45,974 nucleotides of DNA. Source: Lachnospiraceae bacterium. Lineage in GTDB: Bacteria > Bacillota > Clostridia > Lachnospirales > Lachnospiraceae. The DNA lies in the NCBI GenBank assembly GCA_017388745.1, contig JAFPHE010000033.1, forward strand, positions 1-45,974, written 5' to 3'. Position numbers and translations under genes: made by a program. The notes beneath the pieces were generated by a model, which worked only from the letters and a program-made list of their open reading frames with translations, searched no databases and was not told the DNA's origin. Shown here in pieces: positions 11,959-45,974 of this stretch. The first letter of the stretch is position 1; each line of letters begins with the position of its first letter.

Positions 11959-11972
11959 CGGGGTGGCAGACT

Positions 11973-13004: not shown

Positions 13005-13956
13005 GCATCTGCTGGAAGTTGAACACCTCAAACAGTATTTCCCGGTCAGGGACGGATGGTTTTCAACCAAGCCTCTGAAAGCCGTTGATGACGTCTCTTT
13101 TTCGATCGATCCCGGTGAGACCCTTGGCCTTGTCGGCGAGTCCGGCTGCGGCAAGACGACTGTCGGAAGAAGTATTCTCAGACTTTATGAGCCGACAGAC
13201 GGAGTAGTCCGTTTCGAAGGCGAGGAAGTGAATTCCCGCAACATCCATCAGCTCAGGCGCAAAATGCAGATGGTGTTCCAGGATCCGTATTCATCGCTCA
13301 ACCCCCGTATGACGGTCGAGGACATCATCGGAGAGCCGCTGGATGTCCATCATCTGTATCAGGGCCGCGGCGAGCGCCGTGACAAGATCCTGGAACTGAT
13401 GGGACTCGTCGGACTGAACGCAGAACATGCGACCCGTTATGCGCATGAGTTTTCGGGAGGACAGCGCCAGCGTATCGGTATCGCGAGAGCACTCGCGGTC
13501 AATCCCAAGTTCATCGTCTGCGATGAGCCGGTGTCCGCACTGGACGTGTCCATTCAGGCACAGGTCATCAACATGTTTGAAGAACTGCAGGAGAAGCTGG
13601 GCGTGGCATACCTTTTCATTGCCCATGACCTTCTTGTCGTACGTCATATTTCCAAAAATATCGCGGTCATGTATCTCGGACATATGGTCGAGACTGCAGA
13701 GGCGAACGAACTGATGGACCATCCGATCCACCCGTATACTGAATCCCTGCTTTCCGCCGTGCCGATCCCGGATCCGAAGATCGCGAGACAGAAGAAGAGG
13801 ATCATGCTCGAAGGAAACGTACCGAGCCCCCTGAACATGCCGACCGGATGTCCTTTCCGTACCCGCTGCAATTATGCGACGGACCGCTGTGCGGAAGCGT
13901 GCCCGGAACTCACCGATCGCGGCAACGGCCATAAGGTCGCATGCTGGAACCGGTAA
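12997..13956 (+). CDS. oppF: Peptide ABC transporter ATP-binding protein
   Basis: Walker A GESGCGKT; signature FSGGQRQR; Walker [13 protein letters not shown]; C-terminal CPFRTRC motif. Overlaps oppD by 8 nt. Confidence 0.92.
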
Positions 13957-14092
13957 ACATGCTTTATTGCATGCAGATGCTTTTGCTCCGGAATAATTCG
14001 GGAGCAGAGTACTGCAGATCTAATAAAGAAAACAAATCTTCGGGCCAGTTCATGACCCGGACAAGTATTCTCAAAGGAGGAAAAGAAACACT

Positions 14093-27600: not shown

Positions 27601-28142
27601 ATACCGAGGTTTATTCCAACACCGGCGGACAGTCCTCCAAGGCTACCCAGCCCGGCGCAGTGGCACAGTTCGCAGCAGCCGGCAAGGTCGTCAAGAAGAA
27701 GGATCTTGCAGCTATCGCCATGAGCTACGGATATATCTATGTTGCACAGATCTCTATGGGTGCAGATATGGCACAGGCAGTCAAGGCGATCGCCGAGGCT
27801 GAGGCTTATCCGGGTCCGTCCATTGTCATTGCTTACGCTCCGTGTATCAACCACGGCATCAAGAAAGGCATGGGCAAGTCCCAGGATGAAGAGAAACTTG
27901 CGGTCGAGTGCGGCTACTGGCAGAACTTCCGCTTCAATCCGGCTCTGGACAAACCGTTTACTCTGGACAGCAAGGCACCTGACTTCTCCAAGCATGCAGA
28001 GTTCCTGAACGGTGAAGTGCGTTACAGCTCACTTGCACTGAAGGATAAGGAGCGTGCAGCATGGCTGCAGGCAGAGAACCTGAAGAAGGCAGAAGAGCGC
28101 CGCGCTTATCTTGAGAGCCTGAACGAGGTATACAACAAATAA
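24612..28142 (+). CDS. nifJ: Pyruvate:ferredoxin (flavodoxin) oxidoreductase, single-polypeptide PFOR
   Basis: 1176 aa. N-terminus MDGNQAAAHASYPFTEVAAMFPITPSS; ferredoxin domain CVQCNRCSYVCPH / CTGCGSCANVCP; TPP domain GGDGWAYDIGYGGLDH. RBS CAGGAGG. Confidence 0.97.
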   Translation: MARKMKTMDGNQAAAHASYPFTEVAAMFPITPSSVMPEHVDEWASQGRLNLFGQPVQITEMQSEGGAAGAVHGSLAAGALTATYTASQGLLLMIPNLYKIAGEQLPGVFHVSARALATHALSIFGDHQDIYACRQTGCAMLCESSVQEVMDLTPVAHLSAIKGKIPFINFFDGFRTSHEIQKIEVWENEDLVDLLDYDAIKDFRDHALNPNHPCEKGSAQNPDVFFQAREACNPFYDAMPAIVQEYMDKINAKIGTDYKLFNYYGAPDAEHIIIAMGSVNETIEETIDYLAAKGEKVGLIKVRLYRPFDKEAFLAAIPDTVRQISVLDRTKEPGALGEPLYLDVVAALKETKFEKIPVFGGRYGLGSKDTAPNQIIAVFHNTDKKRFTIGINDDVTYLSLPLGEDVVTTPEGTTNCKFWGIGADGTVGANKNTGKIIGDNTDMYSQAYFDYDSKKSGGVTMSHLRFGKKPIKSTYLIKRANFVACHKQEYIRKYNMVQELVDGGTFLLNCQWDKDELEKHLPGQVKKYIYDHKINFYTIDAVKLGIETGMGPTRVNTILQSAFFKLTGIIPEEKAISLMKEAAEKTYGRKGEEVVKTNWAAIDAGAQHVVKIDVPESWKDGVDEGLDYPVAEGANKEVVDFVNGVQVKVSAQEGNSLPVSAFKAYVDGSTPSGSSAYEKRGIAVNVPVWDADKCVQCNRCSYVCPHAVVRPIAMTEEEAAKAPASLVVKPMIGMPDKKFAIVISTLDCTGCGSCANVCPGNKEGKALVMKPQAEAAFQQEGFTFGMTVTEKQDVIDKFKIATVKGSQFRQPYLEFSGACAGCGETPYAKLVTQLFGDRMYIANATGCSSIWGNSSPSTPYTFNKQGRGPAWDNSLFEDNAEFGFGMLLAQNAIRDRLKDKVAKLAESTANEAVKAAAKEYLETFDIGASNTAASDKLIAALEACGCDEGKEILIEKDYLAKKSQWIYGGDGWAYDIGYGGLDHVLAANLDINVMVFDTEVYSNTGGQSSKATQPGAVAQFAAAGKVVKKKDLAAIAMSYGYIYVAQISMGADMAQAVKAIAEAEAYPGPSIVIAYAPCINHGIKKGMGKSQDEEKLAVECGYWQNFRFNPALDKPFTLDSKAPDFSKHAEFLNGEVRYSSLALKDKERAAWLQAENLKKAEERRAYLESLNEVYNK

Positions 28143-31804: not shown

Positions 31805-32219
31805 CTGCGTTACCTCCGTTAGAATAAGATCCTGTCCGGGCAGCAGCCTGCTGTGAACCGGCCGAATACAGTTTTCGCACTTCGTTCAGGAGGGCGTCTT
31901 CCGCAATACCGGCAGCGCTTGCTTTTTCCACAACAGCGTCGAATGCCGCGAGCAGATCCGCCTGTTTCTGACGCGTGATCTGATCCATACCCGCGACAAA
32001 GCTTCCTTTTCCTTTCAGCGAATAGATATAGCCCTGCCGTTCCAACTCGATGTAAGCACGCTGGACCGTATTGGGGTTGATGGAAAGATCCGCTGCCATA
32101 CTGCGGACAGAAGGAAGGGGTGTGTTTTCAGAAAGCACGCCCCGGACCATCAGGTCGGACAGTTTTTCGACGATCTGCTCATAAATAGGCCGTCTGTCCT
32201 TATAATCCAGCAGGATCAT
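31788..32219 (-). CDS. GntR-family (YtrA-subfamily) transcriptional regulator
   Basis: PIYEQIVEKL...LPSVRSMAADLSINPNTVQRAYIELERQGYIYSLKGKGSFV winged-HTH with a short C-terminal domain. ATG 32219 is preceded by AAGGAGA; the ORF-track start at 32288 is unsupported. Confidence 0.9.
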   Translation of the reverse strand: MILLDYKDRRPIYEQIVEKLSDLMVRGVLSENTPLPSVRSMAADLSINPNTVQRAYIELERQGYIYSLKGKGSFVAGMDQITRQKQADLLAAFDAVVEKASAAGIAEDALLNEVRKLYSAGSQQAAARTGSYSNGGNADDRIC

Positions 32220-32300
32220 GCTGTCTCCTTTCTTACAGTCATTACTGCGTTTTCTACGGCCGTTTACCGGAATGCGGCAAGCGGTCATATCAGACTGAAT

Positions 32301-32610: not shown

Positions 32611-34986
32611 TTGAAAAAAATAGGAATTAAAATCAAAGTCAGCGGGATTGTTCAGGGAGTTGGTTTCCGGCCATTTATCCATAAACAGATCACTGACCAT
32701 TGTTTGTGCGGATGGGTAAGGAATACCGGCACCGGTTCGGAACTGAAGCTGGAAGGCCCGGAAGATGAAGTCAGAAGATTTGTCGACGAACTTGGAACGA
32801 AGAAACCGTCACTGGCATTGATTGAAAGGATTGAGACGGAGATCTATGAACCTCTGGAAGGGTTTACGGATTTCTCTATCATTATGTCCAAAGACGGGGA
32901 GGAGCGCAACACCCTGATCTCTCCGGATGTCTGTACCTGTGATGACTGTCTGAGAGAGCTCTTTGATGAGCACGACCGCCGGTATCGTTATCCCTTTATT
33001 AACTGTACCAACTGCGGCCCCAGGTTTACGATCATCCGTGATATACCGTATGACCGGGCGAAGACGACCATGTCGTCTTTCCCGATGTGCAGAGCATGTC
33101 ACGATGAGTATACAGACATCAGCGACCGGAGATATCATGCCCAGCCGGACTGCTGCCAGGACTGCGGTCCGCGCCTGATCTTTACGGACCGAGAAGGCCG
33201 CGAGATCCCCGGAGATCAGATCGCACTTACGCTTCAAGCGCTCACGGAGGGCAGGATCGTCGCGATCAAGGGACTGGGCGGCTTTCATCTTGCCTGCCGG
33301 GCAGACCTTCCGGAACTTGCGCTGAAACTGCGCATCAGGAAACACAGGGATGAAAAACCCTTCGCTCTGATGTGTGCGGATGTGGAAGAGGCCCGGAAGT
33401 ACTGTGAGGTCAGTGAAGACGAAGAACGGATCCTCAAGTCCCACCAGAGGCCGATCGTCCTGCTTCGAAAGCGGCTTCCGGCAGACGCCGGAACGGGTGC
33501 GGAGGACCAGGATCCGTGCAGCATCCTTTCCCACCTGAGCGAAAACAGCCGGATCGGGATTATGCTGCCGTACACGCCGGTGCATTTCCTGCTTATGCAT
33601 GAGCAGCTGAAGACACTGGTCATGACAAGCGCGAACCTGTCCGACCGGCCCATCATTTACCGCAATGAAGAGGCACTTACGGAACTGAAAGGCATTGCGG
33701 ACTGTTTCCTTATGAACGACCGTGACATTCACGTTCGCTGTGATGATTCGGTGATGTGGGTGTTTGAAGGAAGGAACTATTTCGCGAGACGGTCGCGCGG
33801 TTATGTGCCGTATCCGCTGACACTGCATGATGCAGGGGGCAGGAAGTTGCAGATCCTTGCATGCGGCGCGGAACAGAAGGCGACGTTTTCTCTTAGCAAG
33901 GGAGTTCACGTCTTCTCGAGCCAGCATATCGGCGATCTGAAGAATATTGAGACTTACGATAACTTCGAGTTACAGATAAAGCACTTTGAAAAGCTGTTTG
34001 AGATCCGGCCGGAGATGCTGGTCTGCGATCTGCATCCCGACTATCTTTCCACGGGCTATGCCATGGAACGTTCGGAGAAGGAGGGGCTGCCTCTTCTTCA
34101 GGTGCAGCACCATTATGCGCACATGGCGTCCTGTATGGCGGATAACGGGCTTGAAGGCCCTGTTATCGGCATCGTCTGGGACGGTACAGGTCTCGGTACT
34201 GACAATAAGGCCTGGGGCGGTGAGTTTCTGGCCGGCGACTACAGCGGCTTTACACGCTGCGGCACTATCCGGGAGATCGCGCTTCCCGGCGGGGACAAGG
34301 CAGTACATGAGATCTGGCGTATCGCAGCGGCACTGCTCGATGATCTCGGCGTACCGGAAGAAGCTGCAGCTATGCTGAAAGGCGTTGATCAGCAGCAGCT
34401 GGACTTTGCCGGAAAACAGATCCGTTCAGGTATCAACTGCCCGCGGACAACAAGTATCGGACGGCTGTTCGACGGTGTGAGCGCGCTGCTCGGCATTCGT
34501 GAGACCGTAAGCTATGAAGGCCAGGGTGCGATCCTGCTGGAGGCGGAAGCTGAGGCAGGATGTGACGAAGCATATCCCTACAGAATAGAGGAACACCTGG
34601 AAGACGATCCTTCCGCGGGACCGAAGTACGTTTTCGATTACCGGCCTATGCTGAAGGCTATGCTGTCCGGACTATCAAAGATGCATGAAACGGCTGCGGA
34701 TCAGGATCCGGGAACACCCGTTAAGATTAAGCGCCGTATTGCAGCGATGTTCATGAACACGCTTACGGATATGGCGGCCGAAATGGCAGTTAAGATCAGC
34801 CGGGATACCGGGCTTCAGAGAGTGGTGCTTTCGGGTGGCTCATTCCAGAACATGTACATTCTGGAGCGCCTGAGCTCGAGACTTCGGGCGGAGGGCCTTC
34901 AGGTATACACACACAGCCGGGTGGCTTGCAACGACGAGGGTCTTTCGCTCGGGCAGCTGATGATCGCCCGGAAAAGAATGCAGTAA
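32611..34986 (+). CDS. hypF: [NiFe]-hydrogenase maturation carbamoyltransferase HypF
   Basis: N-terminal acylphosphatase-like domain (SGIVQGVGFRPF); two zinc-finger pairs (CDDC..CTNCGPRF, CRAC..CQDCGPRL); YrdC-like and Kae1-like domains. TTG start. Confidence 0.95.
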   Translation: MKKIGIKIKVSGIVQGVGFRPFIHKQITDHCLCGWVRNTGTGSELKLEGPEDEVRRFVDELGTKKPSLALIERIETEIYEPLEGFTDFSIIMSKDGEERNTLISPDVCTCDDCLRELFDEHDRRYRYPFINCTNCGPRFTIIRDIPYDRAKTTMSSFPMCRACHDEYTDISDRRYHAQPDCCQDCGPRLIFTDREGREIPGDQIALTLQALTEGRIVAIKGLGGFHLACRADLPELALKLRIRKHRDEKPFALMCADVEEARKYCEVSEDEERILKSHQRPIVLLRKRLPADAGTGAEDQDPCSILSHLSENSRIGIMLPYTPVHFLLMHEQLKTLVMTSANLSDRPIIYRNEEALTELKGIADCFLMNDRDIHVRCDDSVMWVFEGRNYFARRSRGYVPYPLTLHDAGGRKLQILACGAEQKATFSLSKGVHVFSSQHIGDLKNIETYDNFELQIKHFEKLFEIRPEMLVCDLHPDYLSTGYAMERSEKEGLPLLQVQHHYAHMASCMADNGLEGPVIGIVWDGTGLGTDNKAWGGEFLAGDYSGFTRCGTIREIALPGGDKAVHEIWRIAAALLDDLGVPEEAAAMLKGVDQQQLDFAGKQIRSGINCPRTTSIGRLFDGVSALLGIRETVSYEGQGAILLEAEAEAGCDEAYPYRIEEHLEDDPSAGPKYVFDYRPMLKAMLSGLSKMHETAADQDPGTPVKIKRRIAAMFMNTLTDMAAEMAVKISRDTGLQRVVLSGGSFQNMYILERLSSRLRAEGLQVYTHSRVACNDEGLSLGQLMIARKRMQ

Positions 34987-35052
34987 AGCTTTCCTGATAA
35001 GGGTCATTTCAGATCCTGAGAATTATAGATGATCACGAGGGTATAAAAGGAC

Positions 35053-35280
35053 ATGTGTCTTGCGGTACCATTGAGAATAAAGGAACTGGACGGGACGGAT
35101 GCGGTCGTCGAACGCGACGGCGTTAGCCGCAGAGTCAAGGTCAACTTCATCCGTGAGCCGAAAGTGGGCGATTACGTCATGGTGCATGCGGGCTTTGCCA
35201 TTGAGAAAGTGGACAGCCGGCAGGCAGAGGAGGATCTGGAGGCTTTTCGTGAGCTGGAACAGGTCCTGAGTACACTCTGA
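35053..35280 (+). CDS. hypC: Hydrogenase assembly chaperone HypC/HupF family
   Basis: Invariant N-terminus MCLAVP. 75 aa. The stop overlaps the hypD start. Confidence 0.9.
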   Translation: MCLAVPLRIKELDGTDAVVERDGVSRRVKVNFIREPKVGDYVMVHAGFAIEKVDSRQAEEDLEAFRELEQVLSTL

Positions 35281-36311
35281 TGGCTCTTGATAAAAGCAAA
35301 ACCTATCATCTGATGGAGGTCTGCGGGACCCATACGATGGCGATCGCAAAGTCGGGCATCCGTAATGTGCTGCCGGCTTATATACGGCTTGTCAGCGGAC
35401 CGGGCTGTCCGGTCTGTGTCACACCGCCGGAAGTGATCGATGCGGCACTCCGCCTGACGGAACGCCCAAATGTGATCATTGCCACCTATGGCGATATGAT
35501 CCGTGTACCGGGGTCAGTCAAGGGCGACAATCTTGCGAGACGCTCAGCAATGGGCGCAAAAGTACGTATCGTCTACTCGGCGATGGACGCGCTTGAGATC
35601 GCTAAGGCAGAACCCGGGAGCGAAGTCGTTTTCCTCGGCGTCGGATTTGAAACCTCGGCACCGGGCACAGCGACCTCTGTTGAGGAGGCAAAGCGTCAGT
35701 GCATCGGGAATTATTCGGTCTTTTCCATGCTGAAGATGCTGGAGCCGTCGATCCGCGCGCTGGCATCGGACCCGGAGTTTAATGTGCAGGGCTTTATCTG
35801 TCCTGGGCATGTGGCCGTCATCCTCGGCGAACAGGGGCTGAAGTTCTTTGAAGAACTGGATCTTCCTGCAGTGATCGCCGGATTTGATACGGATGACATC
35901 ATCAATGCGGTCCGTATGCTGATGGTGCAGATCGCAAAAGGAGAGGCAAGGCTTGAGAATCAGTATACCGACGTGGTGCGCCCGGAGGGCAATCCCATGG
36001 CACGGGAACTGATGGACAGGTACCTGATCCCGAGGACGGATATCTGGAGAGGCCTCGGCGTGATCCCGGAAAGCGGTTACGGGCTGAGACCCGAGTACGC
36101 CGACTGGGACGCGGAAAAAAAATTCGGTATCCGTTTCGAGGAACCGGTCATAAAAACGGCCTGCCGTTGCGGCGATGTTGTCAAGGGTAAGCTTGACCCG
36201 ACGGAATGCCCGCTTTTCGGAACGATCTGTGTTCCGGAAGATCCGGAAGGACCGTGCATGGTATCCGCCGAAGGCGCCTGTGCCGCGGCATACAAATACA
36301 GATCGTTTTGA
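35280..36311 (+). CDS. hypD: Hydrogenase maturation Fe-S protein HypD
   Basis: Motifs CGTHT, GPGCPVCV, GFETS, CPGHVA and C-terminal Cys-rich region. Confidence 0.95.
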   Translation: MALDKSKTYHLMEVCGTHTMAIAKSGIRNVLPAYIRLVSGPGCPVCVTPPEVIDAALRLTERPNVIIATYGDMIRVPGSVKGDNLARRSAMGAKVRIVYSAMDALEIAKAEPGSEVVFLGVGFETSAPGTATSVEEAKRQCIGNYSVFSMLKMLEPSIRALASDPEFNVQGFICPGHVAVILGEQGLKFFEELDLPAVIAGFDTDDIINAVRMLMVQIAKGEARLENQYTDVVRPEGNPMARELMDRYLIPRTDIWRGLGVIPESGYGLRPEYADWDAEKKFGIRFEEPVIKTACRCGDVVKGKLDPTECPLFGTICVPEDPEGPCMVSAEGACAAAYKYRSF

Positions 36312-36349
36312 TGTTTTCCGTGACATTATCCGGAAAAGAGGACATAAAA

Positions 36350-37354
36350 ATGGATAATTTCATCACGCTGGACTACGGCAGCGGCGGCAAGAAGACCTCC
36401 GCGCTGATCAGCGATATGATCCTGCCGCTTCTGAAAAACGAAGCACTGGAGGAACTGGGTGACGGAGCCGTGATCGACGGCGCAGAAAGACTCGTGTACT
36501 CCACCGACAGTTTTGTCGTAAGCCCGTATTTCTTTCCGGGCGGGGACATCGGCAAGCTTTCGGTCTGCGGCACGGTCAATGATATCAGCATGGCGGGCGG
36601 AGAACCGAAGTTTTTAAGTCTCGGCCTGATCATAGAGGAAGGCCTCCCCGTCGCGGATCTTCAGCGGATCATCGATTCGATCCGCGCGGCCGCGGACAGG
36701 GCAGGAGTCAAGGTCGTCACCGGCGACACCAAAGTGGTGGAGCGCGGCAGGGGCGACGGGATCTATATCAATACTTCCGGTATCGGCTTCTTAAGGACCC
36801 CGAGGCTCTCGCCCCGAATGATCCGGGAAGGCGACGCAGTACTTGTTTCGGGCACGGTCGGCGACCACGGAACGGCTGTCATGCTCGCAAGAAACGAGCA
36901 CCTTGTACAGGCGGATCTTGATTCCGACTGCGCACCGCTCAATGAGATGGCACTGGCGCTGGGGAAGCAGCTCGGCGCTGACTTAAGAGTCATGCGCGAC
37001 CCGACGCGAGGCGGCATTGCCACGACACTGAACGAGTTTATTGAGGACGGAAGATACGGCATCGAGATCATGGAAAAGGACATCCCGGTCCTGCCGGCTG
37101 TCAATATGGTCTCCGAGATCCTCGGACTGGATCCGTACTATACAGCCTGTGAAGGACGGATGCTTGCAGTTGTGGACGCAAAGGCAAAAGACCGGGCGCT
37201 TGAGATCCTTCACGGATTCGCGGACGGAACGGGAGCGGCGGTCATCGGCGAGGTGACAGGCGCGCATCCGGGCAAGCTCGTTATCCGGACACCCATGGGA
37301 GGGGGACGGATCGCAGCCAAACTCAGCGGAGCGCAGCTGCCGAGGATCTGCTGA
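36350..37354 (+). CDS. hypE: Hydrogenase maturation protein HypE (carbamoyl dehydratase)
   Basis: PurM-like fold. The C-terminus ends LPRIC, with the terminal Cys that carries thiocyanate. ATG 36350 follows AAGAGGA; the ORF-track start at 36206 overlaps hypD. Confidence 0.95.
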   Translation: MDNFITLDYGSGGKKTSALISDMILPLLKNEALEELGDGAVIDGAERLVYSTDSFVVSPYFFPGGDIGKLSVCGTVNDISMAGGEPKFLSLGLIIEEGLPVADLQRIIDSIRAAADRAGVKVVTGDTKVVERGRGDGIYINTSGIGFLRTPRLSPRMIREGDAVLVSGTVGDHGTAVMLARNEHLVQADLDSDCAPLNEMALALGKQLGADLRVMRDPTRGGIATTLNEFIEDGRYGIEIMEKDIPVLPAVNMVSEILGLDPYYTACEGRMLAVVDAKAKDRALEILHGFADGTGAAVIGEVTGAHPGKLVIRTPMGGGRIAAKLSGAQLPRIC

Positions 37355-37447: not shown

Positions 37448-37840
37448 ATGCAGGAATACAAAAGGATCAGCATCACCAAAGACGAAATCGTCCCGCTTGC
37501 TGAGAAAATGCGTAAGAACGGTGTGATCCTCGCAATGATCCACGGGTACCTCGACAAGAACGGTCTGCCGAATATCTCATATGAGTATCAGATCGATCCC
37601 GGCATCGAGTCCTACTACGTGGAAGGCGAGAAAGTCCTCCCGACGATCTCTCACATCTACGATCTGGCTGCAGAGTGGCCGGAGAGAGAGCTGAATGAGC
37701 TGATCGACATCACATTCGAGGGGCTGGACACATCCAAGAGACTTTTCATGCCCGACAGCATGCTGGAGGGCCAGGGTCAGATCTTCGTCACTCCGATGTC
37801 AGAGCTGATCGAGAAAGTACAAAAAAAGAAGGAGGACTAA
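37448..37840 (+). CDS. Group 4 [NiFe]-hydrogenase NuoC-like subunit (MbhK-type)
   Basis: AAEWPERELNELIDITFEG resembles the NuoC/HycE-N motif (W-x-ERE..D.FG). Lies immediately upstream of the large subunit. RBS GAAGGAGAAGG. Confidence 0.75.
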   Translation: MQEYKRISITKDEIVPLAEKMRKNGVILAMIHGYLDKNGLPNISYEYQIDPGIESYYVEGEKVLPTISHIYDLAAEWPERELNELIDITFEGLDTSKRLFMPDSMLEGQGQIFVTPMSELIEKVQKKKED

Positions 37841-37843
37841 CAA

Positions 37844-38926
37844 GTGAGCTATATCGTTCCAATAGGACCGTATCATCCGTCACTGGAAGAACCGGTCCAT
37901 GCGAGACTGATCACTGACGGCGAGCTCATCAGCGATGCGGAAGTATTCATCGGATACAACCACCGCGGCATTGAGAAGCTCTGCATGGAGAGAAACTTCA
38001 TTCAGACGCTGGTCCTGGTAGAGCGTGTCTGCGGCATCTGCTCGCATTCCCATGCCATGACCTATGCGATGACCCTTGAGTCTATTTCAGGCATCAAGGT
38101 CCCGAAGAAGGGCCAGTACATGCGTGTCATCACCGCCGAGCTGGAGAGGCTTCATTCCCACTATCTGTGGCTGGGCATCGCACTCCACATCATCGGCCAC
38201 GACAGCCTGTTCATGCATACCTGGGATGACCGTGAAGCGATCATGGATATCCTTGAGGATCTTACCGGCAACCGTGTTAACTACGGCATGGTCACCTACG
38301 GCGGATCAAGAAGAGACGTTTCCGTAGAGCAGAAAGACCGTATCCTGAAGATGCTTGCCAAGATCGAAGACAGCCAGAACCGTCTCACCGAGTTCCTTCT
38401 TTCCGATAAGACCGTTGCGCTGCGTACACAGGGCGTCGGCGTTCTTACCACGGAAGATGCGATCCGTATCGGTGCGATCGGACCGCACGCACGTGCTTCG
38501 AACGTGCCGGTCGATGTCCGTATCGACGCTCCGTACAGCTGCTACGACGAGTTTGAGTTCAACAAGGCCGTATTCCCGACCTGCGATGTTTTCGCAAGAG
38601 TCGTCGTCCGCTGCCTTGAGAACATTGAAAGTATCAAGATCATCCGCCAGGCACTGGACAGCATGCCGGCAGGCCCCATCAATCTGGGCAACAAGATCCC
38701 GACCATCAAGCCGGGTGAGTATATGTGCAGACATGAGGCACCGCGCGGACAGCTTTCCTACAAGGTCGTTACCAACGGCACCGATAAGAACGAGCGTGTA
38801 AGTATCCACGTTCCGACCTTCAAGAACGCGCCGACGATCCCGACCATGCTGAAGGGCAACTCCGTTGCAGACGCCGGACTGATCATCGCCTCCATCGACC
38901 CGTGCTTCAGCTGCATGGACAGATAA
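37844..38926 (+). CDS. Group 4 membrane-bound [NiFe]-hydrogenase large (catalytic) subunit, NuoD-like (MbhL/EchE-type)
   Basis: N-terminal Ni-Fe ligand motif RVCGICSHSH. C-terminal DPCFSCMDR sits at the very end of the protein. GPYHPSLEEP...IGYNHRGIEK is the NuoD-type N-terminus. GTG start preceded by GAAGGAGGA. Confidence 0.95.
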   Translation: MSYIVPIGPYHPSLEEPVHARLITDGELISDAEVFIGYNHRGIEKLCMERNFIQTLVLVERVCGICSHSHAMTYAMTLESISGIKVPKKGQYMRVITAELERLHSHYLWLGIALHIIGHDSLFMHTWDDREAIMDILEDLTGNRVNYGMVTYGGSRRDVSVEQKDRILKMLAKIEDSQNRLTEFLLSDKTVALRTQGVGVLTTEDAIRIGAIGPHARASNVPVDVRIDAPYSCYDEFEFNKAVFPTCDVFARVVVRCLENIESIKIIRQALDSMPAGPINLGNKIPTIKPGEYMCRHEAPRGQLSYKVVTNGTDKNERVSIHVPTFKNAPTIPTMLKGNSVADAGLIIASIDPCFSCMDR

Positions 38927-38934
38927 GGTAACCG

Positions 38935-39276
38935 ATGCACGAGCTGGTTATCGTCGAAGGGATCCTGGATGCAGTGATCCCGGAGGTCAAAAAGTACGAC
39001 GTTGAGAAGATCCTTTCGATCAGACTGAAGATCGGAGAGCTTTCGGGCGTGGTCCCGTCCTGTATCGAGGAGTATTTCGGGGTCGCCGCGAGAGGCACGA
39101 TCGCGGAAGGGGCGAAGATCATCATTGAGAAGACCCCCATCGAGATCGAGTGCAGGGACTGCGGATTCAAAGGCAGGATCACCAAAGGCACCTACCGGTG
39201 TCCGAAATGTCAGAGCGCAGGCTTCAGGATCGTCTCAGGCAAGGAATATTATGTGGACTCAGTCGAGGCCGAATAG
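38935..39276 (+). CDS. hypA: Hydrogenase nickel-insertion protein HypA
   Basis: N-terminal MHE nickel-binding motif. Zinc site CRDC...CPKC. 113 aa. Confidence 0.9.
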   Translation: MHELVIVEGILDAVIPEVKKYDVEKILSIRLKIGELSGVVPSCIEEYFGVAARGTIAEGAKIIIEKTPIEIECRDCGFKGRITKGTYRCPKCQSAGFRIVSGKEYYVDSVEAE

Positions 39277-39302
39277 TTAAATTAATTTCAGGAGGTACAC
39301 CT

Positions 39303-39842
39303 GTGAAGAAAGCAAGTTCATCGGCGGTGTTATCTACAGCCATCGTATGTTATATCTTCTGGCTGGTGATAACAGGACAGATCGTATCGATCTTCCAAGG
39401 CGCTCCGTCCGTCCAGGTACTGATCGCGGGACTTGTGGTGAGTTTCCTGGTTGCTTTGTTCAGCGCACGCTTCTTCATCCATGAGAAGCCGTTCTATCTG
39501 CTGGGCAAGCTTCCGAGCTATCTTTACTACTGTTTTGTGATCTTCCCGATCGAGCTGTGGAAGGCAAATGTCGACGTTGCAAAGCGCGCACTTAACCCGT
39601 CACTGCCGGTCAACCCGGGCATCGTAAAGATCCCGAGCAACATGAAGTCTGAGTATGGAAGAGCAATGCTTGCAAACTCCATTACCCTGACCCCGGGAAC
39701 CATCACGATGGATATCACCGAGGAAGAGGGCCAGACCTACTACTACATCCACTGGATCGACGTAGCATCTTCCGATCCTGAGGAAGCAGGCGAAGCCATT
39801 AAGGGCACCTTAGAGAAATGGACAGGGAGGATTTGGGAATGA
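39303..39842 (+). CDS. MrpE/MnhE-like subunit (MbhA-type)
   Basis: Two N-terminal TM helices and the MnhE signature ANSITLTPGT. GTG 39303 is preceded by CAGGAGG; the ORF-track start at 39150 overlaps hypA. Confidence 0.85.
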   Translation: MKKASSSAVLSTAIVCYIFWLVITGQIVSIFQGAPSVQVLIAGLVVSFLVALFSARFFIHEKPFYLLGKLPSYLYYCFVIFPIELWKANVDVAKRALNPSLPVNPGIVKIPSNMKSEYGRAMLANSITLTPGTITMDITEEEGQTYYYIHWIDVASSDPEEAGEAIKGTLEKWTGRIWE

Positions 39843-40099
39843 TTATGCCAGAGTTACTGTTTTTCGCAGTTTGCTTCATCGTTCTGGCTCTCTGTCTCTT
39901 ATTCAGACTGATCCAGGGCCCGAGCGTTGTGGACAGAGCCGTTACGGCGGACAGCATCGATATCCTTAGCGATATGGCGCTGATCCTGTTCGCACTTTAT
40001 TCCGGAAGATCCGTTTTCCTTGACATCGCATTTATCACCGCGATCCTCGGATTCATCGGTTCGACCATCGTTGCACGTTATCTGGAGGGAAGGCTATGA
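39839..40099 (+). CDS. MrpF/MnhF-like subunit (MbhB-type)
   Basis: About 86 aa with three hydrophobic helices, and the MnhF-like pattern IQGPSVVDRAVTADSI. ATGA overlap with the upstream gene. RBS GGGAGGA. Confidence 0.75.
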   Translation: MIMPELLFFAVCFIVLALCLLFRLIQGPSVVDRAVTADSIDILSDMALILFALYSGRSVFLDIAFITAILGFIGSTIVARYLEGRL

Positions 40100-40437
40100 G
40101 AATCGTAATAGATATTTTGATCGTCATCAGCATTTTCTTCGCATTTGCAGGCGTTGTAGGCATGCTCCGTATGCCCGATTCCTTCTGCAGAATGCAGTCC
40201 AGCACCAATATCGCCACTCTTGGCGTACTGGGAGTTATTATTGCCGGCGTACTGTATGCAGCCTTCTACCTTCATGACGGCGCGATGGCAGTGAAGCTGG
40301 TATTCATGGGTATTTTCTACATCATCACCAACCCGATCGCGGGTCATGCGATCTGCCGCGGCGGATATAAGCATGGCGTCCGTCCGACCAAGAAGTATGA
40401 GGTAGACAAATACGGAGAGGATATGGTGGAAGAATAA
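40096..40437 (+). CDS. MrpG/MnhG-like subunit (MbhC-type)
   Basis: FFAFAGVVGMLRMPDSFCRMQSSTNIATLG matches the MnhG pattern (G..G..R.PD.. R.H). ATGA overlap. Confidence 0.8.
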   Translation: MRIVIDILIVISIFFAFAGVVGMLRMPDSFCRMQSSTNIATLGVLGVIIAGVLYAAFYLHDGAMAVKLVFMGIFYIITNPIAGHAICRGGYKHGVRPTKKYEVDKYGEDMVEE

Positions 40438-40694
40438 TGAACGTCATGATCCTTTTAAATACCTTGGTCATCATCGGTATTCTCGTGACAGCCGTCTGTG
40501 CCGTCATGTTTGAGAATATCCTGTCATCGGTCATCGCACTGGGTGTGACCGGCGCGCTCATGGCGCTCGAGTTCATCCTGCTGCAGGCACCGGATGTTGC
40601 GATCGCTGAGGCAGCGGTAGGCGCAGTCCTTTCCACCGCCATCTTCGTTATCGCCGTCAAGAAGACTACGCCGAAGGAGGAGGAAGAGAAATGA
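40437..40694 (+). CDS. MbhD-like small membrane subunit (DUF4040 / MrpA-C-terminal or MrpB-related)
   Basis: 85 aa with three TM helices. Contains LQAPDVAIAEAAVGA, typical of the MbhD/MnhB N-domain. TAATG overlap. Confidence 0.7.
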   Translation: MNVMILLNTLVIIGILVTAVCAVMFENILSSVIALGVTGALMALEFILLQAPDVAIAEAAVGAVLSTAIFVIAVKKTTPKEEEEK

Positions 40695-41047
40695 AAAGAA
40701 CCCTTACAGTTATGTCTCTTCTGGTGATCCTGGTATGCGGAATCTTTGCCGGACGCTATGCGTATGACAACATTCCCGTCACCTATGACGGAAGAGAAGT
40801 GAACGTTGTAGACCTCTACAACAATCCGACCGTATATGATGAGAGCAACCCGGACGGCGTAGCCGACGTCATCGTCAAGGAAAACCTCGAAAAGACCATG
40901 GCAGCGAACAACGTTGCAGCAGTCGTCTTCGACTTCCGTGGATACGATACTCTGGGCGAGTCCTTCATCCTGCTGACCGCGATCGCCGGATCCTTCGTGA
41001 TCTTAAGCCGCGGCCACAAGAAAGAAGAGAAGGGAGGCGAAGCATAA
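40691..41047 (+). CDS. MbhE-like membrane subunit (MnhB-related)
   Basis: One N-terminal TM helix, then VVFDFRGYDTLGESFILLTAI, the MnhB-type DxRGxDTLGE motif. ATGA overlap. Confidence 0.7.
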   Translation: MKRTLTVMSLLVILVCGIFAGRYAYDNIPVTYDGREVNVVDLYNNPTVYDESNPDGVADVIVKENLEKTMAANNVAAVVFDFRGYDTLGESFILLTAIAGSFVILSRGHKKEEKGGEA

Positions 41048-41655
41048 TGAAGTTTAAGGACGGAATCAAAGAACAGAACGTCATTATCAAGTGCGGCGCC
41101 GATAAGTTCCTTCCCTTCGCACTTACCTTCGGTATCTATATCATCCTGTTCGGAACCGTATCTCCGGGCGGAGGATTCCAGGGCGGTGTCTGCGTGGCAT
41201 CCGGAGCCCTGCTCCTGTATCTCGGCTACGGCTACAACATCGCCACCAGGGCGATCAACACCGAAGTCCTTCGTATCAATGAGGCGATCGGTGCATCCCT
41301 TTATGTTATCCTTGGTCTCCTTGGTATCGCATTCGGTCTCAACTTTGCCCGCAACATATTCTTCGATATGGGCAATGTCGGCGACCTGCTTTCCGCCGGT
41401 ACCATCACTTTCATGGGCTATGCAGTAGGCTACAAGGTCCTCTGCGGCGTCGGCTTCCTGCTTCTCCTGATGCTCGGACTTCTGGCTCCGGACCCGGATG
41501 ATGCGGATGCTGTTCCCGCGCTTGAGGCGGCAGCACCGGCTGAGCTTCCCCTGGAAGAGACCGCAAATGCAGTCCTTGAGAGCGCAGCACCCGCAGCTGA
41601 GGCAGTTCCTGCAGCAGCGGAAGCTGCAGCAGCAGTAAAGGAGGAGGCAGAATGA
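41047..41655 (+). CDS. MbhF-like membrane subunit (MnhB domain) with a low-complexity Ala/Glu/Pro C-terminal tail
   Basis: PGGGFQGGV MnhB signature and four hydrophobic helices. The last ~55 aa are Ala/Glu/Pro-rich. TAATG overlap upstream, ATGA overlap downstream. Confidence 0.75.
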   Translation: MKFKDGIKEQNVIIKCGADKFLPFALTFGIYIILFGTVSPGGGFQGGVCVASGALLLYLGYGYNIATRAINTEVLRINEAIGASLYVILGLLGIAFGLNFARNIFFDMGNVGDLLSAGTITFMGYAVGYKVLCGVGFLLLLMLGLLAPDPDDADAVPALEAAAPAELPLEETANAVLESAAPAAEAVPAAAEAAAAVKEEAE

Positions 41656-42011
41656 TCATAGTAAATTATATCGCTTCTATCATACTGATCGTCCTCGGAC
41701 TGTACGCAGTATGCACCAAGAAGAACCTGATCAAAGTAGTCCTTGGCCTCGGCATCGTCGATTACGGCGTAAACATGCTGATCGTAAGCCTTGGATTTAA
41801 CGATGGCGGTACCGCTCCGATCTATCAGATGTCTGACCTTCTGAACGGCGTGGCTCCTCACTTCTTTGTAGACCCGGTGCCGCAGGCACTGACACTGACC
41901 AGCATCGTCATCGGCGCCTGCGTAGACGCTATGGCACTGTCACTGGTCATCATGATCTACAGGAAGTATAAGTCCATCAATGCAGATGACGTAAGGAGGT
42001 TGCACGGATGA
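41652..42011 (+). CDS. MrpC/NuoK-like subunit (MbhG-type)
   Basis: 119 aa with three TM helices. LIKVVLGLGIVDYGVNMLIV resembles NuoK/MnhC. Confidence 0.8.
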   Translation: MIIVNYIASIILIVLGLYAVCTKKNLIKVVLGLGIVDYGVNMLIVSLGFNDGGTAPIYQMSDLLNGVAPHFFVDPVPQALTLTSIVIGACVDAMALSLVIMIYRKYKSINADDVRRLHG

Positions 42012-43918
42012 TACAGCATTTTCCGGTATTAGCCGTTATGCTCCTGTTCCTGGGCGCGTTCTGTGTTGAGATCTTCGGATCCAACAATGCAGGCATCCGG
42101 AACACGATCGCTATGCTGGCGGCAACCATTGCACTCGTACTTATTTATGCCCTGATCAAGCCCGTTATGATCGACGGCGAGATCATCAGTTCCTGGATGG
42201 GTAACTGGGCACCCGTATCCGGCTATGCCATCGGTATCGGTTATGAAGTCGATGCGCTCAGCCTGTTCTTTGCCCTGCTGGTAGTCACCACTTTCTGGCT
42301 CAGCGGCGTTTACTCCATGAGCTATATGGCAAAGGACCATCATCTCGGACATTACTACACCCTGTACCTGATGCTTTCCGGTTCTGTACTCGGTCTTGTA
42401 ATGACGGGTGACGTCTTCAATATGTTCGTCATGGTCGAGATCATGACCTTTGCGTCTGTCGCGCTGACCGCATTCCGCAATGAGAATGAAGGCACCCTCG
42501 AGGCAGGCTTCAAGTATCTGGTCATCGGTTCCATGGGTTCATCCTTCACGCTTACCGGTATCGCCCTGATCTACGGTCAGTGCCATACCCTGAACATGGC
42601 GCAGATCAGCGCTCAGCTCTGCACCGGCATGACCCCGACCACCATCATGGCATTTGCCCTGATCGTTGCGGGCTTCGGCGTCAAGAGCTATATCGTACCG
42701 TTCCATACTCCGGCGGCTGATGCTTACATGGTCGCTCCGACCTCTGTTTCCATGATCTTCTCAGGCATGGTCAACAAGGCCGGCGTATACGGCATGATCA
42801 GAGTGCTCTACATCATTTTCAGAGCGATGGACAAGTCCTCCGTACAGATGCTCGTTGTCATCTTCGGTGCGGTCACCATGTTCATCGGCGTCACCATGGC
42901 GCTTGCACAGCATGACTTCAAACGTCTGCTTGCATTCCACTCCATTTCCCAGATCGGTTATGTTATCACTGCGATCGGTCTCGGAAGCGCGCTGGGCATC
43001 ACCGGCGGCCTGTTCCATGCCATGAACCACACCCTGTTCAAGGGTCTGCTGTTCCTGACTGCAGGCGCTGTCCTGTATGCTACCGGCACCACCAACCTTG
43101 ACAAACTCGGCGGTCTTTCCAAGAAGATGCCGAAGACCTGCATCTGCTTCCTGATCGGTGCATTCTCCATCTCGGGTCTGCCGCCGTTCAACGGATTTGT
43201 TTCCAAGTGGCTTGTTTACCAGGCGACTTATACCAAGGCAGTAGAGAGCGGAAACTTTGTTTACGCAATCGTTACAGTCGTTGCGCTGATCGTTTCCGTC
43301 ATGACCCTGGCATCCTTCATCAAGGTCACCCAGGCAGTCTTCTTCGGCCAGCTTCCCGCTGAACTCAAGAAGACCCAGGAGGCTCCGGCTTCCATGCTTG
43401 TTCCGATGTACATCATGTCTGCACTCTGCGTGCTTTGCGGCATTTTCTACCCGATCGTGAACAAGTACCTGCTTCATCCGGCTACCGAGGCCACGCTCAA
43501 TGTTACCAACTACATCGACAGGATGATGGGCGACGGCTATGCAGCTATGATGGGCGCACAGAACATCGAAGTTGCTCCGGTACAGTTCAGCTACTGGAAC
43601 CCGATCGTATGGCTGATCCTCTTCGTGGTCATCTTTATCGCGGCGTTCATCGTGATCACCGGATCAAAGAGCAGCAGAGGACAGATCCTCAATCCGGGTG
43701 TCAAGTACGATCCCAAGTACGCTACCTTCTTCTCAGGTGAAGAGGAGCTCTTCTCACAGGTCGGAGGTTCTGATCTGTTCTGGGGCTTCAAGACAGACTG
43801 GAAGGGCTACTACAAGGTCCTTGAAGGCCTTCACAGCGGTATCGTTACGGATTATGCCGGCTGGACAGTCATGGCAACTGCGATCATCACCATTTGTATG
43901 TTTATCTTTATGCGTTAA
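42008..43918 (+). CDS. MrpD/NuoL-M-N-like antiporter-type subunit (MbhH-type) with a C-terminal TM-amphipathic-TM extension
   Basis: 636 aa. Proton-conducting membrane transporter core (LMLSGSVLGLVMTGDVFNMFVMVEIMTFASV, HTPAADAY, FSGMVNKAGVYG, FHSISQIGY, HTLFKGLLFL). Confidence 0.9.
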   Translation: MIQHFPVLAVMLLFLGAFCVEIFGSNNAGIRNTIAMLAATIALVLIYALIKPVMIDGEIISSWMGNWAPVSGYAIGIGYEVDALSLFFALLVVTTFWLSGVYSMSYMAKDHHLGHYYTLYLMLSGSVLGLVMTGDVFNMFVMVEIMTFASVALTAFRNENEGTLEAGFKYLVIGSMGSSFTLTGIALIYGQCHTLNMAQISAQLCTGMTPTTIMAFALIVAGFGVKSYIVPFHTPAADAYMVAPTSVSMIFSGMVNKAGVYGMIRVLYIIFRAMDKSSVQMLVVIFGAVTMFIGVTMALAQHDFKRLLAFHSISQIGYVITAIGLGSALGITGGLFHAMNHTLFKGLLFLTAGAVLYATGTTNLDKLGGLSKKMPKTCICFLIGAFSISGLPPFNGFVSKWLVYQATYTKAVESGNFVYAIVTVVALIVSVMTLASFIKVTQAVFFGQLPAELKKTQEAPASMLVPMYIMSALCVLCGIFYPIVNKYLLHPATEATLNVTNYIDRMMGDGYAAMMGAQNIEVAPVQFSYWNPIVWLILFVVIFIAAFIVITGSKSSRGQILNPGVKYDPKYATFFSGEEELFSQVGGSDLFWGFKTDWKGYYKVLEGLHSGIVTDYAGWTVMATAIITICMFIFMR

Positions 43919-43933
43919 GGGGAGGGAAGGAAA

Positions 43934-44884
43934 ATGATTATATTGAGAAGTTTATTCTACATCCTGATTTTCCCGGGCGCACTGTTTACAGCCTGCTTCG
44001 GGCTGTTCCTCACAGGCGTTGACCGCAAGGTCGTAGCCCGCATGCAGCATCGTATCGGACCGCCGTTAAGACAGCCCATGTACGATTTCTTCAAGCTGCT
44101 CGGCAAAGAGACCATCATTCCGCACGCTGCCAACAAGATCGCATTCCTTGGCGCGCCGATCATCGGTTTCGTCAGCCTTGCCCTGATCATGCTCTTCATC
44201 CCGGTCGGCGGACTGACCGCTTTCTCCGGAAACGCGGACATGATCGTTATCCTTTACCTCATCACGATCCCGGGCGTTGCCCTGATCGTAGGCGGTTCCT
44301 CCTCAGGTTCCCCGTATGCCGGCATCGGTATCTCCCGTGAGATGGTCACCATGATGGCATATGAGCTTCCGTTCGTACTGGTCCTTCTGGCAGTTGCCAG
44401 AAAGGCAGGCGGCAGCGAGCTGGCATTCTCCATGGAAAAGGTAGCCGAATGGCAGGCAGCCAACGGCAATATGCTGTTCCAGTGGAGCATGATCCCGGCA
44501 GCGATCGCCATGCTTCTGGTCGTTCCGGCTGAAGTCGGCACCCAGCCTTTCGATGTAGCGGAAGCGGAGACAGAGATCTGTGAAGGTCCACTGATCGAGT
44601 ACAGCGGTTCTGCGCTCGGCATGTTCAAGCTGAACACTGCGATGAAGATGTTCGTCATGTCCGGACTCTTTGTCTCCCTGTTCCTGGGCGGCATCCGTAC
44701 CGGATTCGCAGTCTGCGACGTCATCGTATTCATCCTGCTCTGCATTGTCGTGACCATCATCTGTATGTCTACGACCCATGCCGTCACTGCACGTCTGAAG
44801 ATCGAACATCTGTTCAAGTTCTACTGGACATTTGTGGCAGGCATGGCGCTCTGCAGCCTGATCCTTGTATGGTGCGGCTTATAA
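43934..44884 (+). CDS. NuoH-like membrane subunit (MbhM / EchB / HycD-type)
   Basis: DRKVVARMQHRIGPP N-terminal NuoH signature and the PFDVAEAETE motif. 316 aa with about 8 TM helices. Confidence 0.9.
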   Translation: MIILRSLFYILIFPGALFTACFGLFLTGVDRKVVARMQHRIGPPLRQPMYDFFKLLGKETIIPHAANKIAFLGAPIIGFVSLALIMLFIPVGGLTAFSGNADMIVILYLITIPGVALIVGGSSSGSPYAGIGISREMVTMMAYELPFVLVLLAVARKAGGSELAFSMEKVAEWQAANGNMLFQWSMIPAAIAMLLVVPAEVGTQPFDVAEAETEICEGPLIEYSGSALGMFKLNTAMKMFVMSGLFVSLFLGGIRTGFAVCDVIVFILLCIVVTIICMSTTHAVTARLKIEHLFKFYWTFVAGMALCSLILVWCGL

Positions 44885-44902
44885 TTGAGGAGGTAAGAAA
44901 GA

Positions 44903-45349
44903 ATGTTTAATAAATTAATTAACGACAGCGCTTCGAAATCTCCCTGGCTCTACCATATCAACTCCGGCTCATGCAACGGCTGCGATATCGAGCTGGTTGC
45001 ATGCCTGACTCCCCGTTATGATGCCGAGCGTTTCGGCTTCAAGCTGGCAGGTACCCCGAGACACGCGGATATCGTTGTCGTGTCCGGTCCGGTCACTTCC
45101 CAGTCCAAGGAGAGACTGATCCGTACTCTGGCACAGGTGCCGGAACCCAAGTGTGTCGTATCCTTAGGTTCCTGCCCGAAGTCAGGCAATGTTTTCAAGG
45201 GCAGCTATTCCGTTGAAGCTCCGCTGGATGACTACTGCCATGTCGACGTATCCGTCGCTGGCTGCACCCCGAAGCCGGAAGCAATCATGGAAGGCCTTTA
45301 CAAGGCAGCCCTGATTTTGAAAGAGAAGAGGGAGGCGATGCACAAATGA
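44903..45349 (+). CDS. [NiFe]-hydrogenase small subunit, NuoB-like (MbhJ/EchC-type)
   Basis: Four Cys for the proximal 4Fe-4S cluster: GSCNGCDIE, GSCP, GCTPKPE. Confidence 0.9.
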   Translation: MFNKLINDSASKSPWLYHINSGSCNGCDIELVACLTPRYDAERFGFKLAGTPRHADIVVVSGPVTSQSKERLIRTLAQVPEPKCVVSLGSCPKSGNVFKGSYSVEAPLDDYCHVDVSVAGCTPKPEAIMEGLYKAALILKEKREAMHK

Positions 45350-45974
45350 TGTTCCCCTTTCTGAAGAAAGCTGTAACCAACGCATTCACCAAACCCAGCA
45401 CGGAAGCATTTCCATGTCCGGAAGCGGAAGGCCTCGGCAAATACCGCGGCAGGATCGCATTTGACGGCGAGAAGTGCATCGACTGCGGTATGTGCATCAA
45501 GGTCTGTGCTCCGGCAGCGATCACGCTTGACCGTGAGGACGTAGAAGGCGGCCAGAATATCTGGCGTACCTTTGATCTGACCTCCTGCACCTTCTGTGCC
45601 ACCTGCGCTGATTTCTGCGAAGAGGGCGCGATCGAGATGACCACAGACTACCACATGGTAGGAACAAAGCATGAGGATCTGCTTGTCAAGGGTGTCACCT
45701 TCAAGAAGGCCATCATGGGCAATCTTGAGTGCGATATCGACAACTGTATCTACTGCGGTCTCTGCGCACGCAACTGCCCGCAGAACGCGATCACCGTGGA
45801 TCGTACGACCAAGACCTGGGAGATCGATCACGAGAAGTGCGTCAAGTGCGGCATCTGTATCGGCAAGTGCCCGAAGAAGGTCCTGAAGTTCGGCGAGCCG
45901 AAGCCCGAAGGCGTAGTATTCGACGAGAGCAAGTGCGTATACTGCACGCTCTGCGCGAAGAAGTGCCCGGTCGG
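45346..45974 (+). CDS. Polyferredoxin-type 4Fe-4S subunit (NuoI/MbhN-like N-terminus with extra clusters), 3' end outside the window
   Basis: Not in the supplied ORF track because there is no stop in the window. My translation is MMFPFLKKAVTNAF... with five CxxCxxCxxxC motifs: CIDCGMCIKVC, CTFCATCADFC, CIYCGLCARNC, CVKCGICIGKC, CVYCTLCAKKC. ATGA overlap with the small subunit. RBS GAGGGAGG. Confidence 0.85.
   Translation, partial: MMFPFLKKAVTNAFTKPSTEAFPCPEAEGLGKYRGRIAFDGEKCIDCGMCIKVCAPAAITLDREDVEGGQNIWRTFDLTSCTFCATCADFCEEGAIEMTTDYHMVGTKHEDLLVKGVTFKKAIMGNLECDIDNCIYCGLCARNCPQNAITVDRTTKTWEIDHEKCVKCGICIGKCPKKVLKFGEPKPEGVVFDESKCVYCTLCAKKCPV

Follow-up and report, generated by a model that had tools for sequence, protein, structure and literature searches.

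A group 4g [NiFe]-hydrogenase operon with Mrp-linked, Mbh-type architecture in a Lachnospiraceae bacterium from the goat rumen

The stretch of DNA analyzed here (the window; 45,974 nt, positions 1-45,974 of contig JAFPHE010000033.1) derives from an uncultured Lachnospiraceae bacterium of the goat rumen and closes with an operon of [NiFe]-hydrogenase and Mrp-type membrane genes that starts at 37448. As read from the gene sequences, the operon consists of 13 structural genes whose predicted products cover all 14 subunits of the membrane-bound hydrogenase (Mbh) of Pyrococcus furiosus, together with the maturation gene hypA, and its proper label is group 4g with an Mbh/Mrp-linked architecture. We consider it probable that the products assemble into one 13-subunit, Mrp-linked complex of Mbh architecture that would couple ferredoxin-driven H2 evolution to the translocation of H+ or Na+. 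The electron donor, direction, and coupling ion so proposed are the most likely ones given homology to Mbh and the nearby genes for pyruvate:ferredoxin oxidoreductase (PFOR) and for Hyp maturation proteins.

The class assignment follows from the [NiFe] large subunit, L. The HydDB-classified sequences of Greening et al. 2019 (PMC6776011; Supplementary Table S1) supplied the group 4g references. Two strains of the rumen collection, Clostridiales bacterium NK3B98 and Clostridium lundense DSM 17049, are listed there with a NiFe Group 4g large subunit of 360 aa, their nearest HydDB references being Thermobrachium celere (Caloramator celer) WP_018661973.1 and C. lundense WP_027624751.1 (PMC6776011). 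The window L is 69% identical to the NK3B98 protein (G618DRAFT_01560) and 60% identical to the C. lundense 4g sequence in ungapped comparison, and it shares with the clostridial 4g proteins its length, N-terminus, NiFe motifs, and a ...DPCFSC(L/M)DR end. HydDB classifies by nearest neighbors, and metagenomic surveys have applied a threshold of 60% identity to group 4. In a neighbor-joining tree of a small set of sequences labeled by HydDB as 4a, 4c, 4d, 4e, 4g, 4h, and 4i (with one 4d reference and no 4b), the window L and the two 4g sequences formed one group with 100% bootstrap, the deeper nodes being unresolved (bootstrap below 30). The 4g label rests on these identities of 60-69% together with this grouping. 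In HydDB itself, 4g is a loose cluster whose role is undetermined and whose coupling to ferredoxin is putative (PMC5037454).

A preliminary description made from the sequence alone had called the operon Mbh-type, and a placement in group 4d does not stand: L is 43% identical to MbhL as against 60-69% for the 4g sequences, and it does not join 6cfw_L, the one 4d reference, in the tree; Mbh proper was rejected on this large-subunit similarity. We found no literature on group 4d in the rumen. Clustering with formate hydrogenlyase (FHL; 4a) or Ech (4e), which the same description had named as refuting it, was not seen: these proteins are 39-41% identical to the window L, and Ech falls in a separate clade with good support. 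More broadly, Ech, FHL, CO-linked enzymes, and Eha/Ehb were ruled out by L identities of 36-41% (HycE 39%, the 4c reference 41%, three 4e sequences 39-41%, 4h/4i 36-39%) in combination with subunit content. Ech is known as a six-subunit enzyme that lacks an MrpEFG/B/C module, and the window operon contains seven Mrp/Mbh-type membrane genes. For the FHL and formate- or CO-respiring classes (4a, 4c), L clusters with neither group and a linkage to formate dehydrogenase (FDH) or CO dehydrogenase (CODH) is missing; no FDH, CODH, or flavoprotein gene occurs in the 46-kb window or directly after the operon in a near-identical locus from another goat-rumen genome (L001, described below). Eha/Ehb (4h/4i) are, like the complex proposed here, multi-subunit membrane NiFe enzymes, but archaeal and with a different set of membrane subunits.

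Each operon product was assigned by Pfam and NCBIfam profile searches, which placed all membrane subunits in Mrp, Mbh, or Nuo families. Together with the PDB matches, they provide a counterpart for every P. furiosus Mbh subunit, in accord with the archaeal mbhA-N inventory recognized earlier. The NuoC-like, large, NuoB-like, and NuoH-like subunits of the catalytic module were likewise confirmed as to family and NiFe motifs. The large subunit carries RVCGICSHSH and a C-terminal DPCFSCMDR followed by the stop codon, with no C-terminal extension, and satisfies both group 4 motifs, L1 (RxCGxCxxxH) and L2 (DPCxxCxxR). Its alignment with MbhL shows the four NiFe cysteines conserved along with E20/E21 and H75. 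The translation of the small subunit J contains CNGC, GSCP, and GCTPKPE. Against PDB chains, L scored 278 bits with 6cfw_L, 238 bits with HycE, and 138 bits with MbsL. The catalytic subunits are short, as had been remarked: L has 360 aa, the size of 4e and 4c proteins (359-360 aa), versus 380 aa for the MbhL chain of the PDB entry, and K has 130 aa versus 173 aa for MbhK. Ech 4e large subunits (359-360 aa), such as that of Butyrivibrio fibrisolvens (WP_027203889.1), resemble the window L in length and in having no C-terminal extension; Ech 4e enzymes are ferredoxin-linked and common in rumen Lachnospiraceae (PMC6776011).

Domain searches verified that hypFCDE adjoins the operon and that a PFOR gene lies 9 kb upstream. 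The hypFCDE genes and the embedded hypA would build and load the NiFe(CN)2CO cofactor. Whereas hypF, C, D, E, and A are present, neither hypB (the Ni-inserting GTPase) nor a maturation endopeptidase was found in the window. Because L ends at DPCFSCMDR, a protease cleaving the C-terminus should not be needed, and the missing endopeptidase gene is consistent with L ending at the cleavage-site Arg. PFOR is the likely source of reduced ferredoxin, as a context gene that is not co-transcribed with the operon.

The membrane arm had been described as MrpE, MrpF, MrpG, MrpB-related, NuoK-like, and antiporter-like proteins, and the Pfam and NCBIfam families agree. Its largest member is a 636-aa protein in which residues 10-510 match MbhH (6cfw_H, 304 bits) and residues ~527-632 match MbhI (6cfw_I) alone (E=3e-9), so that the H(+I) fusion suspected earlier holds. 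Aligned to MbhH, this protein retains E143, K225, K256, H350, K354, and K409, and acidic residues matching MbhG D37, MbhD E69, and MbhB D35/D59 are present in the respective small subunits as judged by position offset only; the proposed functional roles of these Mbh residues are taken from PMC8679088. Among PDB chains, L, H, I, M, and K find their best or sole relative in P. furiosus Mbh (6cfw). The scores of B, C, D, and G are somewhat higher with Mbs (6u8y), the membrane-bound sulfane reductase of P. furiosus and a paralog of Mbh; D, for example, reaches 58.3 bits with Mbs and 53.0 bits with Mbh. These scores raised Mbs/Mbx as a candidate, which was ruled out by the four NiFe cysteines, the hyp genes, and the single antiporter-like protein; Mbs, which is not a hydrogenase, has lost two of these four cysteines (PMC8165549), and its antiporter-like subunits number two (chains H and X) versus one here.

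Only one antiporter-like (PF00361) protein is encoded in the operon. A canonical Mrp antiporter would have two, MrpA and MrpD, and no redox module. As it is single, and as catalytic genes flank the membrane genes on both sides, a stand-alone Mrp antiporter is not possible, which disposes of the suggestion that the Mrp-like genes might function as an independent antiporter. The predicted F protein carries an Ala/Glu/Pro-rich, low-complexity C-terminal tail of ~55 aa (DPDDADAVPALEAAAPAELP...AAAVKEEAE; window 41490-41652) and measures 202 aa against a family median of 160 aa; judged from these sequences, the tail appears to be lineage-specific.

Fourteen tightly packed plus-strand open reading frames run from 37448 to the window end (Table 1), as the preliminary description had stated, and all eight start/stop overlaps that it named are borne out by the coordinates: six are 4-nt, ATGA-type overlaps (39839, 40096, 40691, 41652, 42008, 45346) and two are 1-nt overlaps (40437, 41047). 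Its claim of strong ribosome-binding sites throughout was upheld for the two starts read directly, both with purine-rich, site-like sequences: K starts 11 nt downstream of GAAGGAG, and the GTG of the MrpE-like gene A (39303) is preceded by AGGAGG. Terminator and promoter scans inside the operon gave counts not above those of shuffled controls.

The last gene, encoding the ferredoxin-like subunit N, is cut by the window end and was completed from L001, the locus of the goat-rumen metagenome-assembled genome (MAG) Lachnospiraceae bacterium RGIG3678, whose large subunit is 99% identical to that of the window. In L001 the N gene is complete and is followed by an unrelated lipoprotein gene. The N stop codon is followed after 36 nt by a strong hairpin resembling an intrinsic terminator (18300-18329 of L001), with a 13-bp stem containing 8 G-C pairs and with a T-rich tail; it marks the end of the operon just past the window. 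Because L001 has a complete N gene and then this hairpin, we regard the operon as intact and ending with N; a disruption beyond the window, which had been considered earlier, is ruled out by this intact locus.

Table 1. Operon genes and context genes, with window coordinates and family matches
Product	Coordinates	Strand	Length	Matches and remarks
MbhK/NuoC-like subunit (K)	37448..37840	+	130 aa	PF00329 (Complex1_30kDa), 35.6 bits; sole PDB match 6cfw_K, E=3.8e-4
[NiFe] large subunit (L)	37844..38926	+	360 aa	PF00346 (Complex1_49kDa) and PF00374 (NiFeSe_Hases)
HypA nickel metallochaperone	38935..39276	+		PF01155, E=6e-31; inside the structural operon
MbhA/MrpE-like (A)	39303..39842	+	179 aa	PF01899 (MNHE), E=3e-39; GTG start
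MbhB/MrpF-like (B)	39839..40099	+	86 aa	PF04066 (MrpF_PhaF); 6u8y_B 51.6 bits, 6cfw_B 45.0 bits
MbhC/MrpG-like (C)	40096..40437	+	113 aa	PF03334 (PhaG_MnhG_YufB); 6u8y_C 70.2 bits, 6cfw_C 37.5 bits
MbhD-like (D)	40437..40694	+	85 aa	PF13244, E=5e-20; PDB matches 6u8y_D and 6cfw_D
MbhE-like (E)	40691..41047	+	118 aa	PF20501, 27.9 bits (cut-off 27); NCBIfam: MrpA C-terminal and MrpB regions
MbhF/MrpB-like (F)	41047..41655	+	202 aa	PF04039 (MnhB) over residues 14-135
MbhG/MrpC/NuoK-like (G)	41652..42011	+	119 aa	PF00420 (Oxidored_q2); 6u8y_G 107 bits, 6cfw_G 86 bits
Fused MbhH (residues 1-~510) and MbhI (~527-632) (HI)	42008..43918	+	636 aa	PF00361 and PF00662 (Proton_antipo_N/M)
MbhM/NuoH-like (M)	43934..44884	+	316 aa	PF00146 (NADHdh), E=1.5e-71; best PDB match 6cfw_M
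MbhJ/NuoB-like small subunit (J)	44903..45349	+	148 aa	PF01058 (Oxidored_q6); proximal [4Fe-4S] ligands
MbhN/NuoI-like domain and polyferredoxin tail (N)	45346..45974	+		multi-Fer4; gene cut by window end
hypF, hypC, hypD, hypE maturation genes	32611..37354	+		HypF Pfam domains, PF01455, PF01924, AIRS/AIRS_C
Pyruvate:ferredoxin oxidoreductase (PFOR)	24612..28142	+	1176 aa	POR_N, PFOR_II, POR, EKR, Fer4, TPP_enzyme_C

The window operon is a typical member of a widespread and already catalogued family, not a one-off. We surveyed gene order by tblastn, with the window proteins as queries, in 80 related loci from as many species-level genomes; most of these genomes are rumen, cecum, and fecal MAGs of Clostridia (Lachnospiraceae, Oscillospiraceae, and others), some of them from the human gut. 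Wherever the contigs reach, the order K-L-hypA-A-B-C-D-E-F-G-HI-M-J-N is kept without exception. The operon had been thought to be rearranged, which is correct in that its order differs from that of archaeal mbhA-N, but it is not peculiar to this genome, and the invariance across the 80 loci rules out a local rearrangement. The hypA gene occupies the equivalent position in all 80, hypFCDE is directly upstream in most, and the H-I fusion is universal among the relatives (635-658 aa), with L varying from 360 to 365 aa. Loci that span both ends start with K or L and end with N or K; a K homolog was not detected by tblastn in three more distant loci (L078-L080).

Close relatives of the operon occur in at least 160 species-level genomes of rumen and gut Clostridia, and its cultured carriers include NK3B98, Pseudoflavonifractor sp. 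An176, Lachnoclostridium sp. Marseille-P6806, Caloramator celer, and C. lundense. The best database representative of NK3B98 was 92% identical, and the locus of Marseille-P6806, a human isolate (L081, from LR130580.1; operon at 10001-18720 of L081), served as the cultured comparison. Its large subunit is 67% identical to that of the window, and its operon, L-hypA-A-B-C-D-EF-G-HI-M-J-N-K, repeats the window layout from L to N. It differs in having K last instead of first, E and F fused (295 aa) instead of separate, and two clusters in N instead of six.

The N subunit varies in cofactor content within the family. The full-length protein of L001 has 250 aa and six CxxCxxCxxxC [4Fe-4S] motifs; residues 1-115 match HycF, MbsN, MbhN, and NuoI, and residues 120-250 match the polyferredoxins FwdF, MvhB, and RnfB. 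What had been taken for a simple ferredoxin subunit is therefore a NuoI-like domain extended by a polyferredoxin tail, with six clusters in all. In relatives that share 71-99% identity with the window in the large subunit, N ranges from 124 to 502 aa and contains 2, 4, 6, 8, or 10 [4Fe-4S] motifs, six being the commonest, which corresponds to a tail of zero to four added 2x[4Fe-4S] domains. No compensating Fe-S gene was found downstream of N among the relatives compared, and we found no description of a variable cluster number in N in the literature examined.

We infer the following eight steps by analogy with P. furiosus Mbh. Reduced ferredoxin, mainly from PFOR, would pass electrons to N, where they would run along the six [4Fe-4S] clusters, through the tail first and then through the NuoI-like pair, before moving to the single cluster of the NuoB-like J and on to the NiFe site in L, at which protons would be reduced to H2. 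The small free energy released would drive a conformational and electrostatic coupling via the NuoH-like M and the MbhI helix, this coupling would drive proton transfer in the single antiporter-like MbhH domain, and Na+/H+ exchange would follow in the MrpEFG/B/C-like module (A-G). ATP synthase would then use the resulting ion gradient. In Caloramator celer, a 19-gene cluster (TCEL_00187-00205) was predicted in 2014 to encode a ferredoxin-dependent, MBH-like enzyme (PMC3986597), and this homologous cluster, given as a locus-tag range without per-gene annotation, was treated as the only route by which ferredoxin is re-oxidized with formation of H2 (PMC3986597).

The comparison with P. furiosus Mbh (mbhA-N; 6CFW; 4d) provides the structural frame for this scheme. 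The antiporter-like subunit is single in both systems, and both keep the ion-pair and lysine residues of MbhH and the proton-delivery Glu of MbhL. They differ in that the window order is K-L-hypA-A-G-HI-M-J-N rather than A-N, with H and I fused and hypA inside the operon, in that the window N has four extra [4Fe-4S] clusters, and in the mesophilic, bacterial host. Among the PDB matches, Mbh-type entries are limited to the P. furiosus enzymes Mbh (6cfw) and Mbs (6u8y), with no bacterial member, and we found no biochemistry on a bacterial relative in the literature, in keeping with the earlier remark that biochemistry and structures for this class come essentially from Thermococcales.

Several observations weigh against a ferredoxin-driven, ion-translocating, H2-evolving complex of the Mbh kind. 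Group 4g was still termed uncharacterized in 2024-25 (PMC11257099, PMC11773752). The large subunit is only 43% identical to MbhL, and it is roughly equidistant, at 36-41% identity, from the 4a/4c/4e/4h/4i references. As to ion specificity, His41 of MbhG, part of the proposed Na+ site, is Asn in the window protein, and MbhB N38/T39 are apparently not kept (by position offset only); MbsG of P. furiosus Mbs/Mbx (6U8Y) also has Asn at the His41 position. Finally, the N tail is absent from P. furiosus MbhN and recalls the polyferredoxins of Eha/Ehb and Mvh. Eha/Ehb complexes include polyferredoxin electron-transfer proteins, and these polyferredoxin-bearing enzymes, like Mvh, work in the H2-uptake direction.

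This last point leads to the alternative that the complex runs mainly in reverse, using H2 oxidation and the H+/Na+ gradient to reduce ferredoxin, as do methanogen Eha/Ehb and Ech, and so providing low-potential electrons for biosynthesis or CO2 reduction in an H2-rich gut. We judge this improbable. It gains from the resemblance of the N tail to MvhB and FwdF and from the likeness of the tail, on general knowledge, to the polyferredoxins of the uptake-direction Eha/Ehb. Ech-type enzymes work reversibly in the cell, and for 4g the direction is undetermined according to HydDB (PMC5037454 for both); the group is also enriched in the high-H2 ruminant cecum, where acetogenesis dominates (PMC11773752). 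The genes of the window point the other way, with PFOR nearby and no pointer to CO2 fixation among them. The tail, moreover, varies by zero to four extra domains in close relatives, and this variable length argues against a strict mechanistic role for it. C. celer is a vigorous H2 producer in which this enzyme is the only ferredoxin-oxidizing route (PMC3986597).

The extra 2x[4Fe-4S] domains, which give six clusters here and up to ten in relatives, also resemble the wire subunits FwdF, MvhB, and RnfB, and FHL and CO-linked enzymes are generally known to use analogous Fe-S connector proteins. It is conceivable on these grounds that the electron donor is a partner oxidoreductase docked on the N tail in a hard-wired supercomplex like FHL or 4b/4c, instead of free ferredoxin, candidates being PFOR itself, a dehydrogenase for formate or CO whose gene lies elsewhere, or a module linked to NAD(P)H. 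We think such a supercomplex very unlikely, in view of the lack of FDH, CODH, and flavoprotein genes noted above for the window and for the region directly after the operon in L001. Loci reaching both ends contain only K or L first and N or K last, and some relatives, including the Lachnoclostridium isolate, have an N with two clusters only.

That the locus encodes two machines, a small hydrogenase resembling Ech (K, L, M, J, N) beside a separate Mrp antiporter (A-HI), is scarcely credible. In its favor, the catalytic subunits are Ech-sized, and genuine Mrp antiporter chains are among the PDB matches of the small membrane subunits. Against it, there is one antiporter-like subunit and no homolog of the antiporter-like N-terminal part of MrpA, the MbhI domain, which matches no PDB chain other than MbhI of Mbh, is fused to MbhH, the Mrp-like genes sit between L and M, translationally coupled and invariant in 80 genomes, and H and M are nearest to Mbh rather than to Mrp or Ech-type relatives.

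The proposal of a single H2-evolving complex leaves room for a more specific idea, namely that the clostridial 4g enzymes are a distinct mechanistic variant, with a rapidly evolving N tail, small subunits that lean slightly toward Mbs, and the exchange of MbhG His41 for Asn. We offer this only tentatively and think it rather unlikely. If it were true, the variant might possess an electron antenna of its own for docking partner enzymes or tuning reversibility, might differ in ion specificity or stoichiometry, and would be a major enzyme of ion-motive H2 cycling in the uncultured Clostridia of rumen and hindgut.

An Mbh-like reading of such operons is not new, and the window adds another member of a catalogued class, not a new principle. 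Group 4g Mbh enzymes linked to Mrp have already been described in Cloacimonadota and Omnitrophota MAGs (PMC8542988). In the rumen, 4g transcripts have some of the highest hydrogenase RNA/DNA ratios, their role having been flagged as functionally unresolved in 2019 (PMC6776011), and the group is enriched in the ruminant cecum (PMC11773752). The value of the locus is that it points to a large, syntenic, and experimentally tractable family with a variable polyferredoxin tail. Should energy-conserving H2 evolution prove true, it would raise the fermentative ATP yield of these bacteria, bring into models of rumen methane formation a further H2 source that is sensitive to thermodynamics, and provide a mesophilic bacterial counterpart in which to test archaeal Mbh mechanisms and the origin of complex I.

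Other genes of the window include a short FtsH-like protein of 436 aa (2856-4166; AAA and M41 peptidase domains), from which the usual N-terminal membrane/extracellular region is seemingly missing, and a stand-alone acylphosphatase-domain protein of 152 aa (8410-8868). A divergent, minus-strand group between PFOR and hypF (28294-32288) comprises a GntR-family regulator, an ABC ATPase, and an 873-aa DUF6449 membrane protein. A five-gene ABC transporter of the Opp/Dpp/Nik type (9878-15928), with two permeases, two oligo_HPY ATPases, and a family-5 solute-binding protein, could, from its gene content, import peptides or nickel.

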